64,000 bases of DNA, taken from assembly GCA_963831005.1 (NCBI GenBank), contig CAWHOW010000019.1, positions 250,000-313,999 on the forward strand, read 5' to 3'. A program made the position numbers and the translations under genes. Source of the stretch: an uncultured Bacteroidota bacterium. GTDB lineage: Bacteria; Bacteroidota; Bacteroidia; Bacteroidales; CG2-30-32-10. The notes beneath the pieces were generated by a model that ran no database searches, was not told where the DNA came from, and saw only the letters and a program-made list of their open reading frames with translations. Of the stretch, positions 60,898 to 64,000 are shown one piece after another (positions within the stretch are counted from its first letter, which is position 1; the number at the start of each line of letters is the position of its first letter).

Positions 60898-60927
60898 TAA
60901 ATATCAGAGATTTTATTATTTGCATCA

Positions 60928-61935
60928 GTGCGAAGTACTGTTCGAGCATGGCGAATAACACTTCAAGCAGTGCATGTTGTGTTTGTGGACGCGGGCGAGC
61001 AGGCCGTGCTGGAGCATTTCGGCAGACCCGTCGCCACGCTTGACGCCGTGGCGCATTTCAAGCTGCCGTGGCCGGTGGAAAAAATCTACCGCTTTCGCAC
61101 GGAACAAATCCAGACGTCTCGTCGGTTACGTTCCCGACGCGCAGAGCGAAAGGGCCGACACGATTTTGTGGAGCGTCTTCCCACGCGAAGGAGGATAATT
61201 TTCTCGTCGCAAACCGCGCGCCGGTCACGGTTCAAAATGACGGCGCCGGCACAAACGACGCCCTGAAGGCGACGCCGGTCAGCCTGATTTCCGTCAGCAT
61301 CCCGGTCCAGTTTCAAATCACCAACGTCACCGACTGGGCTTACAACAATGCCGACGCGACGAACCTGCTGCAATCGCTCGCCACGCGGGAAGTGGCGCGT
61401 TTTCTGGCGGGCGCGGACTTGAACAACGTGATGTCGAGCAACCGGCTCGAAGCGGCGGAGACATTGCGCGACAACATTCAAACCTCGGCGAACGAATACA
61501 AACTCGGCGCGAAAATCATTTTTGTCGGCCTGCAGGACATTCATCCGCCGACCACGGTCGCCGGCGATTACGAAAAGGTCATCGGCGCGGAGCAGACAAA
61601 GTTCGCCATCAGCAATGCCGCGCAGGCTTATGCCATCAGCAACTCGCGCTGGCCGGGGCGCAGGCGTTCACGACCACGAATCTCGCCGACGCTACGCGGC
61701 TGCAACTGGAAGTTTCGCGGTATGCGCAGGCGGCGCTGTTCACCAACCAGATTCCGGCGTTCGAGGCCGCGCCGTCCGTTTATAAACAGCGCGTCTATTT
61801 CCAGACGTTTGCCGACGCGACCCAGAACGCCCGCAAATACGTTTTGCTCGTCACGAACACCCAGGACGTCGTGATTTTTGATCTCGAAGACAAAATCCGC
61901 GCGGACCTTTTGAATGCGACCGTGCCCAACGAATA
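60928..61935 (+). CDS. hflK: HflK-like SPFH/band-7 membrane protease-modulator protein in high-GC DNA, with multiple frameshifts
   Basis: The HflK-family conserved blocks (GEQAVLEHFGRP..HFKLPWPVEKIYRF.TEQIQT; NVTDWAYNNADATNLLQSLATREVARF; C-terminal DVVIFDLEDK) sit in at least three frames. ORFs 60928..61266, 60974..61198, 61068..61874 and frame 3 to the stop at 61935 all carry parts of it. Confidence 0.6.
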
Positions 61936-61941
61936 AATGCC

Positions 61942-62851
61942 ATGAAACGAAATTCCCTGACCATCATCATCGGCGCAGTGCTGGTTCTGATTTTCGCGCT
62001 GCTGCTGTTTGTCTTTCAAGTCCGCCAGTCGGAGACCGCCGTCGTCGCGACCTTTGGCAAGCCGACCAGCCAGAATTATGACCAACCCGGCGCGTATTTC
62101 AAATGGCCGTGGCCGATCCAGAAAGTTTATAAATACGACCAGCGCGTCCAGAATTTCGAGGACAAATTCAGCCAGACACTCACTGCGGACAGCAGCATGC
62201 GGCTGACGAGCGTTTTGTCGGCTGGCAGATATCGGACGCGAGGCAGTTCCTGCAGGTTTTTCCCGGCGACGCGTCGGTGTCGCTCCCAAACGCGCAAAGC
62301 AAGCTCGAAGGCATGGCTGCGCACGGCCAAAAGCGCCGCCATCGGCAGGCATCTGCTGTCCGATTTTGTGAACGCGAATCCGAAGGCCCTGAAATTTGAT
62401 GTAATCGAAAATGAAATCGAACAGTCCGTGCAAAACGAATTGCAGACGAACAATTACGGCATCGAGCTCGAATTTCTCGGCTTCAAAAAAATCGGCCTGC
62501 CCGAAAGCGTGACGCAGACAGTTTTTGACCGCATGAAATCAGAGCGGCAGAAGCTTATCAGCCGCGCGGAAAACCAAGGAAAAGCGGGGGCGCAGAAAAT
62601 CCAGTCCGCCGCCGATGCCGACGCCGCCCGGACCATCGCCAACGCCCAGGCCATCGCGACCCGCCTTCGCGGCGAGGCCGAGGCCGAGGCCGCCATAACC
62701 CTGCCGGTGTTCCAGCGAAATCCAGACTTGGCAGTTTTCCTTTGGCGCATTGACGCGATGAAGCAATCGCTGGACTCGCGCGCGACTCGTTTTTCGACGG
62801 GCGCATTCCGCCATTTGATTTGTTCAGCCACATGCCGACGAATGCGCCAAA
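61942..62851 (+). CDS. hflC: HflC-like SPFH/band-7 protein in high-GC DNA, frameshifted
   Basis: It has an N-terminal TM helix, then SETAVVATFGKP..AYFKWPWPIQKVYKYDQRVQ. Downstream blocks are LKFDVIENEIEQSVQNELQ..YGIELEFLGFKKIGLPESVTQTVFDRMKSERQ and the C-terminal DSRDSFFDGRIPPFDLF, the last in a different frame. Confidence 0.6.
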
Positions 62852-62957
62852 AAAAAAAAAAAAAAAAAAAAAAAAAAAAAAAAAAAAAAAAAAAAAAAAA
62901 AAAAAAAAAAAAAAAAAAAAAAAAAAAAAAAAAAAAAAAAAAAAAAAAAAAAAAAAA
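62849..62957. repeat. 109-nt uninterrupted poly(A)/poly(T) homopolymer
   Basis: It is counted directly: from a at 62849 through 62957, then cca. It produces poly-Phe and poly-Lys ORFs (62454..62975, 62824..63009). Confidence 0.95.
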
Positions 62958-62973
62958 CCAGCAAACTGAACCC

Positions 62974-64000
62974 ATGAGCGACGAACACGAACATCATCAT
63001 CACGGGCACGAGGCGCCGGAGTCGGTTGACGCCGGTTCGCAGGCGCTGGCCGAGGCGCTCCGCAGCAGCTTTGCGATTGTCAAGGTCGTGATGCTGCTGA
63101 TGGTCGTCGCGTTTTTCGGTCGGGATTTTTCCAGGTCGGCCCGTCGGAAAAGGCCGTCATTCTCCGTTTCGGCAGGCCGGTCGGCGAGGGCAGGGGCGCG
63201 CTGCTCGGACCGGGATTGCACTGGTCGTTTCCCTATCCAATTGACGAAGTGCGGAAAATTCCGATCTCGGAAATACAGAAAGTCACCTCGACGACCGGCT
63301 GGTATTTCACCACGCCCGAACAGGAATTGAGCGGCGAGGAGCTGCCGGCAGGCGCGTCTCTGTTGAATCCGGCGATTGACGGTTACGTCATCACCGCCGA
63401 CCGCAACATCGTCCACACGCGCGCGACGCTGAATTACCACATTGACGATCCGATTGCGTATATTTTCAAATTTGCATCCGCGTCCAACTCGATTCAAAAC
63501 GCGCTGAACAACGCCCTGCTGTTCACCGCCGCGAAATTCAACGTGGACGATATTCTCACGCTGCGACGTCGCCGGTTTTCAGGACGCCGTGCTGGCGCGC
63601 GTCAGTGATTTGACCGAGCAGGAGCAGTCTCGGCATCGTCATTGACAACTGCCAGGTGCAGAGAAATAGCGTCGCGCCGCGGCAATTGCAGGATGTGTTT
63701 GACGCGCGTCACCGAGGGCGCGCCAGAACCAGAGCAAACAGATCAATGTCGCGAACACTTACCGCGACACAAACCCTGCTCAACGCCGCCGCGCAGGCAT
63801 CGGCCATCACCACGCAAGCCGCCGCCGCCAGCGCGAATTACGTCAAGGCCATCCAGGCCGACGCCAAGGCCTTCACCGACGTGCTGCCGGCATTCGAGGC
63901 AAATCGAAATTTGTTCGCGCAGCAAAAACTGGCCGAAACGATGGCGCTGGTGCTGACGAACGTGCAGGATAAATTCTTCCTGCCGGAGCGCGCCGATGGC
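62974..64000 (+). CDS. Second HflK-like SPFH protein in high-GC DNA, with a His-rich N-terminus, frameshifted, running off the window end
   Basis: It begins MSDEHEHHHHGHE.., then has a TM helix (VVMLLMVVAFFG), then GPGLHWSFPYPIDEVRKIPISEIQKV in another frame. A later block reads ..SVAPRQLQDVFDA.. and the C-terminal block is NLFAQQKLAETMALVLTNVQDKFFLPE. Confidence 0.55.

Follow-up and report, generated by a model that had tools for sequence, protein, structure and literature searches.

The window analyzed here, a single stretch of 64,000 nts of metagenomic DNA, carries tex (58,760-60,900, plus strand) as its last Bacteroidales gene. This gene encodes a Tex-family RNA-binding protein with the Pfam domains Tex_N, Tex_central, Tex_YqgF, HHH and S1, has its closest relatives in Bacteroidales, and is closed by two consecutive stop codons (TGA TAA) at 60,895-60,900, exactly where its terminus had been placed before. 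The sequence from 60,901 to 60,973 is still native to Bacteroidales and comprises an AT-rich leader 3' of tex (60,901 to ~60,925, plus strand) and the first ~2.3 repeats of a tandem array with a 21-bp unit (60,926-60,973, plus strand), which match the repeat units at 5014-5061 of the contig L086 described below. A 48-bp element recurring after tex was also considered as a CRISPR repeat and rejected, as it is part of a degenerate tandem array with a 21/42-bp period and no spacers. Homology to Bacteroidales extends to 60,973 and that to Verrucomicrobiota begins at 60,977, and the three nts between them (60,974-60,976), assignable to neither side, mark the breakpoint of the putative chimera.

Beyond the breakpoint, the tail of the window encodes three SPFH genes on the plus strand. 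The first (60,977-61,937) is the 3' half (~codons 303-626) of a membrane SPFH/HflK-like gene of 626 codons. Because the tail starts at ~codon 303 (homology begins at nt 907 of 1,881), this gene has no start codon, N-terminal half or promoter, a 5' truncation that had previously gone unremarked. The second (61,942-62,981) is an HflC-like gene of ~305 codons in its relatives; a total of 2,990 homologs were found, the best at 87% identity, and those with names are HflC proteins of Verrucomicrobiota. The third, another HflK-like gene of 360 codons in its relatives, starts at 62,975 and runs past the end of the window at 64,000. Comparison with the related locus L089 suggests that the natural stop codon of the second gene probably overlaps the ATG of the third. 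All three reconstructed proteins contain the Band_7/SPFH domain (PF01145; E = 6e-13, 5e-21 and 7e-18, respectively). Their earlier naming as HflK-, HflC- and HflK-like holds in that the intact relatives in L001 match the NCBIfam models HflK, HflC and HflK (TIGR01933 for HflK and TIGR01932 for HflC), with scores of 99.5, 116.6 and 129.6 bits that stay below the respective equivalog cut-offs of 159.4, 134.4 and 159.4. No ftsH gene adjoins the SPFH genes in L001-L005.

The original prediction had read this region as an abrupt switch from AT-rich to GC-rich DNA, preferably caused by an assembly error, and had proposed a tetranucleotide comparison, a separate BLAST of the tail and a search for the same junction in independent assemblies as checks. 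The compositional switch is real. GC content is 0.370 over 1-60,900 versus 0.566-0.584 afterwards (37% to ~58%), and GC3 is 0.37 in tex versus 0.73-0.78 (~0.75) in the tail genes. Measured from the low-GC centroid, the tetranucleotide distance of the tail exceeds that of 20 low-GC segments of equal size by 17.6 SD, and its distance to the Verrucomicrobiota loci L001 and L005 is only 0.013-0.014. The stop-free antisense ORFs described earlier (61,795-62,433 and 63,000-63,497, both on the minus strand) are also present. However, the change does not occur within ~30 bp of the tex stop codon as had been thought: a maximum-likelihood change point for GC falls somewhere in 60,920-60,993, and the breakpoint defined by homology is located 77 nts past the stop. 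Base and oligonucleotide composition thus change abruptly at a single point, as is expected of a chimeric contig. The same compositional contrast would also be expected of unameliorated foreign DNA, that is, of a genuine and very recent horizontal acquisition, by which part of an SPFH operon from Verrucomicrobiota would have entered the repeat array just 3' of tex in this Bacteroidales strain. The apparent occurrence of both taxa in similar metagenome collections would agree with such an event.

The separate BLAST of the tail returned Verrucomicrobiota-like metagenome contigs. From ~60,977 onwards, five independent metagenome contigs are collinear with the tail across all three genes at 86-90% nucleotide identity, and the named relatives of these contigs are Verrucomicrobiota. 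The blastn alignment beginning in the first gene shows 85.9% identity to L001 5035-6908 (the intact counterpart of this gene in L001 is located at 4128-6008), and the third gene shares 85.7-90.1% identity with L001 6919-7934 and L005 1733-2739. The SPFH triplet consists of ordinary genes of Verrucomicrobiota in the usual order, with nothing specific to this junction. In L001, a P-type ATPase gene follows the triplet. Each side of the breakpoint therefore has the native synteny of a different taxon, with tex being of Bacteroidales and the SPFH triplet Verrucomicrobiota-like.

The way in which the two sides meet argues against an acquired operon. The join disregards gene and locus boundaries: it cuts the 626-codon gene near its middle on one side and, on the other, the 21-bp repeat array after ~2.3 of ~21.7 units, so that the foreign DNA is not an intact operon. 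No tRNA gene was detected within 50,000-64,000, no integrase, transposase or other mobility gene in the visible tail, which encodes only the three SPFH genes, and no flanking direct repeats at the join. The integration machinery and target that characterize a genomic island or horizontally acquired insert are thus missing here. Screening of the join and of the flanks of the poly(A) run described below for adapter remnants gave scores within the null range.

An independent view of the locus is provided by L086 (ENA ERZ25039486, contig_85205), an independent consensus that was taken to represent the same Bacteroidales organism. It is 99.2% identical to the window over 55,990-60,955 (~5 kb) and does not contain the junction. 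Instead, the 21-mer array continues to a length of 456 bp (4931-5388, period 21/42, ~21.7 units), and beyond it L086 runs on into 4 kb of DNA with ~40% GC, whose tetranucleotide signature places it with the low-GC part of the window. Thus, an assembly of the same organism has native DNA in an undisturbed locus where the window has SPFH genes. With 26 mismatches to the window in 5 kb, L086 may represent another strain, and a strain-specific acquisition would be compatible with this observation. An exact search of JGI metagenome contigs for the 27-mer spanning the junction gave no match, a result of little weight because the window apparently derives from an ENA/NCBI record.

The two sides also differ in consensus quality. 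Judged against intact relatives, 3, 3 and 6 corrections are needed to restore the reading frames of the three tail genes, in line with the earlier statement that two or more frameshifts are required for each. These frame-breaking indels are located at 61,117 (deletion of 2 nts), 61,176 (insertion of 1 nt) and 61,643 (deletion of 1 nt) in the first gene; at 62,215 (deletion of 1 nt), 62,315 (insertion of 1 nt) and 62,788 (deletion of 1 nt) in the second; and at 63,119 (deletion of 1 nt), 63,562, 63,629, 63,702, 63,716 and 63,771 (insertions of 1 nt each) in the third. The higher error density claimed for the tail was confirmed, with 12 such window-specific indels in ~2.9 kb versus ~4 detectable ones in the 60.9-kb low-GC part, i.e., ~4 per kb and a ~60-fold excess (Poisson P ~4e-18, and 2e-13 even if 10 were present in the low-GC part). 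The low-GC part is itself affected, which had not been noted before: two insertions of 1 nt each, at 59,135 and 59,218 (located against L087 and L088), leave tex in two separate ORFs. Of the pairs of overlapping ORFs on one strand in this part, only those of the aspartokinase and of an IS transposase turned out to be single genes split in two, whereas the pairs S16/RimM and YCII/peptidase C26 and the two glycosyltransferases were rejected as candidates because each pair consists of separate genes.

In addition, a poly(A) run of 109 nts (62,849-62,957, plus strand), also overlooked in the original prediction, is present near the 3' end of the second gene. It is a pure insertion relative to related loci, lying between bases that are adjacent in them (GCGCC and CAGC), and is absent from L089, L001 and L005. 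Apart from this run, the longest homopolymers measure 11 nts in related loci totaling 1.35 Mb and 9 nts in the rest of the window. Two other origins of the run were considered. Replacement of an intergenic spacer of the same length, suggested by the 115-bp spacer of L005, was rejected because the run is a pure insertion versus L089 and L001; the L005 spacer is an unrelated palindromic element. A scaffold gap of 100 Ns turned to A, together with nine natural A's, was rejected because the relatives have no A's there and no sequence is missing across the site. By exclusion, the run is most likely a read-level sequencing artefact kept in an unpolished consensus. Together with the indels, it indicates that the tail is poorly covered and barely polished sequence.

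These errors bear on each of the biological explanations. An insert in the same chromosome should have the same coverage and hence the same consensus quality as its flanks, whereas the quality of the tail, judged by error density as the only proxy, is not equal to that of the flanking chromosome. Considering this along with the foreign DNA that begins in mid-gene, the missing integration features and the undisturbed locus of L086, a recent horizontal acquisition is very unlikely, even though the deposited 314-kb contig does contain the junction. A variant of it, in which illegitimate recombination within the 21-bp array produced a real join, a promoterless SPFH fragment was captured and the poly(A) tract is truly hypermutable, seems exceedingly doubtful. 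Alternatively, the tail might truly belong to the same organism, with the indels and the poly(A) run reflecting pseudogenization and decay of an old foreign insert; the disruption of all three tail genes, and of the neighboring tex as well, would fit such decay. However, an old insert is expected to be ameliorated and diverged, whereas the tail retains its 86-90% nucleotide identity to free-living relatives and a GC3 of 0.75, and its genes contain no in-frame stops other than those caused by the frameshifts. Moreover, tex is broken in L086 at positions different from those in the window, which points to consensus error rather than shared mutations. Decay of an old insert is accordingly hardly credible.

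Taken together, the window is very probably a long-read metagenome assembly chimera, an artefact in which Bacteroidales DNA (1-60,973) is joined to Verrucomicrobiota-like DNA (60,977 to at least 64,000). The original preference for a different taxon joined by assembly error is thereby supported by the relatives of both sides, the cut gene and repeat array, L086 and the error density. The likeliest course of events would involve a well-covered Bacteroidales genome and a much less abundant Verrucomicrobiota-like organism in the same community. The assembler path may have stalled in the 21-bp tandem-repeat array just downstream of tex, and one chimeric long read, or a small number of them, may then have carried it further, the cause being either ligation chimeras in the library or a spurious overlap. 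Very low coverage of the foreign part would have caused polishing to leave raw-read-type errors and the 109-nt homopolymer burst in place. The sequencing platform and the assembler are deduced only from the error profile and the naming style of the contig. In ONT datasets, chimeric reads reach a share of 1.7-8.2%, interspecies chimeras included (PMC10025935), and every metagenome assembler generates chimeric contigs (PMC11261854).

The chimera resides in the deposited record, because ORFs of both sides are recorded on one NCBI/ENA contig of 313,999 nts: a frameshifted tail ORF of 268 aa (61,068-61,871) and three low-GC ORFs, which correspond to the N-terminal part of tex, its C-terminal part and a ketoacyl synthase. 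This argues against a join made during preparation of the 64-kb window and absent from any public assembly, which is next to impossible. The junction has no biological significance, and its consequences are practical. Verrucomicrobiota DNA of 3 kb or more is contained in a 314-kb contig that apparently belongs to a Bacteroidales MAG. Joins of this kind falsely suggest that genes have been transferred across phyla, bring contaminants into the gene catalogs of individual taxa and introduce frameshifted pseudo-proteins into protein databases; the broken tail ORF P0242 already serves as a cluster representative. The case also illustrates that a sudden local rise in frameshift density, along with an extremely long homopolymer, can reveal a break in coverage where the reads themselves are out of reach.

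Several known systems resemble parts of this locus. The SPFH genes are similar to the HflK/HflC modulators of the FtsH protease in their Band_7 domain, in having HflK, HflC and HflK as best models, and in an adjacency like that of hflK-hflC pairs. Unlike these, however, the relatives of the tail have a triplet encoding proteins of 626, 305 and 360 aa with scores below the equivalog cut-offs, the first of which has a long multi-pass membrane N-terminal half, and the copies in the window are truncated or frameshifted. A genomic island would likewise show a sharp discontinuity in GC content and codon usage beside a housekeeping gene, but the present segment lacks an integrase, a tRNA target and flanking direct repeats, its cargo starts in mid-gene, its consensus quality is unlike that of the chromosome beside it, and it is absent from a near-identical copy of the genome. 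The poly(A) run resembles the homopolymer bursts of raw single-molecule reads, both as a long one-base run between bases that are adjacent in relatives and in its position amid other raw-read-type indels. Nothing essentially distinguishes the window from documented interspecies chimeric contigs, the particulars of this case being the lack of an adapter remnant, the involvement of two phyla and the presence in a 314-kb contig in NCBI/ENA. It shares with them the change of composition and taxon at a single point, the join inside a gene and a repeat, the unequal consensus quality and abundance of the two sides, and the native continuation found in another assembly.

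The composition of the window switches abruptly behind tex, its last Bacteroidales gene (58,760-60,900, plus strand), which encodes a Tex-family RNA-binding protein. GC content is 0.370 over the low-GC part up to ~60,900 (0.34-0.42 in 2-kb bins) and 0.55-0.62 beyond it, and a two-segment likelihood scan placed the change point at 60,920-60,993. As the original prediction had stated, third positions become GC-rich: their GC fraction is 0.37 in tex and 0.73-0.78 across the genes of the GC-rich tail (60,977-64,000). It had also proposed a tetranucleotide comparison of both sides: the distance from the tail to the low-GC centroid is 0.067, versus 0.016 +/- 0.003 for twenty same-sized low-GC segments, which places the tail 17.6 SD out. 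The stop-free antisense ORFs expected in the tail were recovered by an ORF scan, and they lie wholly opposite Band_7 matches of the sense strand. The 578-aa tex ORF is identical to the database protein P0241 (578/578) and is on record at NCBI and ENA, with the Tex_N and ketoacyl-synthase ORFs, on one 313,999-nt contig; a frameshifted tail ORF (P0242, 268 aa, 61,068-61,871) is likewise recorded in both databases on one 313,999-nt contig. The join therefore belongs to the deposited contig and was not created by cutting the window.

Coding sequence in the tail is spread over all three forward frames, and the three stitched proteins match Band_7/SPFH in Pfam (E = 6e-13, 5e-21 and 7e-18). The middle, HflC-like gene has 2,990 homologues (best 87% identity; nearly all 304-305 aa), and all the named ones are Verrucomicrobiota/Verrucomicrobiae 'protease modulator HflC'. 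Five independent metagenome contigs (L001-L004 from JGI and L005 from ENA), and later also L089 from ENA, served as relatives. A separate search with the tail, suggested earlier for its taxonomic assignment, gave 85.7-90.1% nucleotide identity to these Verrucomicrobiota-like contigs. They share one gene order, in which genes for a Band_7 protein (626 aa), an HflC-like protein (305 aa) and another Band_7 protein (360 aa) follow one another and, in L001, a P-type ATPase comes next; the tail is collinear with them from 60,977 to 64,000, interrupted solely by a poly(A) run. Among NCBIfam models, the intact L001 proteins 1, 2 and 3 match HflK, HflC and HflK best, in keeping with the predicted label; since all three score under the curated equivalog cut-offs, 'HflK/HflC-like SPFH proteins' is the proper naming level. 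In L005, a 115-bp palindromic element of CAACATT-type repeats (1614-1728) separates the HflC-like gene from the one that follows it, and resembles an insertion of REP or MITE type; at this site, the genes of L001, L089 and the window overlap or are 2 nt apart.

The tail begins inside the first SPFH gene, a 5' truncation that adds to the original prediction. Homology to L001 starts at its nt 5035, within a gene spanning 4128-6008, and thus the window enters this gene at nt 907 (codon 303 of 626). Tail gene 1 has no start codon, no promoter and no multi-pass membrane N-terminal half, and upstream of 60,977 the window resembles the Verrucomicrobiota gene neither in DNA nor in protein sequence.

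On the other side, the closest species-level genomes for the tex protein are Bacteroidales MAGs (~71% amino acid identity), a Lentimicrobiaceae MAG among them, and a larger protein collection adds relatives with 94-95% identity and a single one with 100%. The latter (P0121) is encoded on a 9,374-nt contig, L086 (ENA ERZ25039486 contig_85205), which aligns to window 55,990-60,955 at 99.2% identity. Because this alignment contains 26 mismatches and 12 gap openings, L086 represents an independent consensus, built from the same organism or one very closely related to it. Recurrence of the junction in an independent assembly had been named as evidence against a faulty join; L086 instead continues in native low-GC DNA, with a tandem array, an AT-rich spacer and ~40% GC coding sequence to the contig end. 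Tetranucleotide distances of this downstream DNA are 0.026 to the low-GC centroid and 0.067 to the tail. The array (L086 4931-5388) has a 21/42-bp period and 21.7 degenerate units with the consensus TGCGAAGTACACTTCGAGCAT. Since window 60,926-60,973 consists of its repeat units (95.8% versus L086 5014-5061), the sequence is Bacteroidales up to 60,973 and Verrucomicrobiota from 60,977. The tex ORF ends at 60,897, with a second stop codon directly behind it (60,898-60,900). A change within ~30 bp of the tex stop had been predicted; its abruptness stands, but the breakpoint (60,974-60,976) lies 77 nt past the stop codon, inside the repeat array. This array is located directly 3' of tex in this Bacteroidales lineage, where a gene caller placed a 103-aa ORF over it, and is absent from L087 and L088, relatives with 83-86% nucleotide identity.

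Error density was compared by counting only window-specific indels, lacking in two relatives that agree mutually. Frame-breaking indels number three in tail gene 1 (61,117; 61,176; 61,643), three in gene 2 (62,215; 62,315; 62,788) and six in gene 3 (63,119; 63,562; 63,629; 63,702; 63,716; 63,771), consistent with the two or more frameshifts per gene proposed originally. These 12 indels in ~2.9 kb are mostly outside homopolymers. The 60.9-kb low-GC part is tiled by long intact ORFs (up to 1,156 aa), with ~4 detectable breaks: tex carries two insertions of 1 nt (59,135; 59,218), and an aspartokinase and an IS transposase are each split. From this rate, 2.9 kb should contain 0.19 breaks (P(>=12) = 4e-18, or 2e-13 when the low-GC break count is set to 10), which bears out the predicted excess of errors in the tail. 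Segments of a single chromosome share their read depth and should come out of polishing with equal quality; as a ~60-fold indel contrast is nevertheless seen, we infer a coverage switch, as expected from a switch to a rare genome.

Within tex, the window and L086 consensuses are both frameshifted in one ~170-nt stretch (window 59046-59218; L086 3053-3224), at differing positions (+1 at 59,135 and +1 at 59,218 in the window; -1, +1, -1 in L086). Judged from the two sequences, the pattern suggests a hotspot of systematic consensus errors and not a pseudogene common to both. The aspartokinase (877-2261, minus strand) appears to fall into two ORFs overlapping by 52 nt, one with the AA_kinase domain (1251-2261) and one with the ACT domain (877-1302), probably through a consensus frameshift. 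The IS-type transposase (42241-43177, plus strand) is split into HTH_Tnp_4 and DDE_Tnp_4 ORFs with a 92-nt overlap; possible causes are a frameshift error, decay of this copy and programmed frameshifting.

A further feature beyond the original prediction is an uninterrupted poly(A) run of 109 nt at 62,849-62,957. Compared with L089 and L001, it is a pure insertion splitting bases that are adjacent in the relatives: L089 reads ACGAATGCGCC followed directly by CAGCCACTGACC and ATG, and the window reads ACGAATGCGCC, A x109, CCAGCAAACTGAACCC and ATG. The site is 4-7 codons ahead of the HflC-like stop codon, near the 3' end of the gene, and the run, if real, would give the protein ~36 additional lysines. 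Homopolymers reach at most 11 nt across 1.35 Mb of related loci and at most 9 nt elsewhere in the window. By comparison with the relatives, the run is best read as a putative read-level artefact, which may have been kept because the tail received hardly any polishing.

A genuine strain-specific event, by illegitimate recombination or horizontal transfer, appears very improbable: no tRNA was found within window 50,000-64,000 and no integrase or transposase Pfam domain in the visible tail (to 64,000), the foreign cargo begins mid-gene, the locus is undisturbed in the near-identical L086, and the two sides of the join contrast sharply in error density. The mid-gene cut, the L086 continuation and the error density support the proposed joining of a different taxon by assembly error, and the composition switch is an assembly artefact, not a biological feature. 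Since no adapter remnant was found at the join, the more likely route would be a ligation chimera or a false overlap within the repeat, not two unsplit reads. In practice, this result flags a contaminated public contig. Among short-read sequences, the closest relatives of the Bacteroidales tex (L088, ENA ERZ27249965; 95% amino acid identity) and of the Verrucomicrobiota HflC-like protein (L089, ENA ERZ27248448; 87%) belong to ENA analyses whose accession numbers lie near each other, possibly parts of one study, which, if true, would fit a habitat common to both taxa. Interspecies chimeric reads are documented in nanopore metagenomes (1.7-8.2% of reads; PMC10025935), and chimeric contigs were produced by every benchmarked assembler (PMC11261854). 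The window join shows all sequence-level hallmarks of this class of metagenome chimeras.
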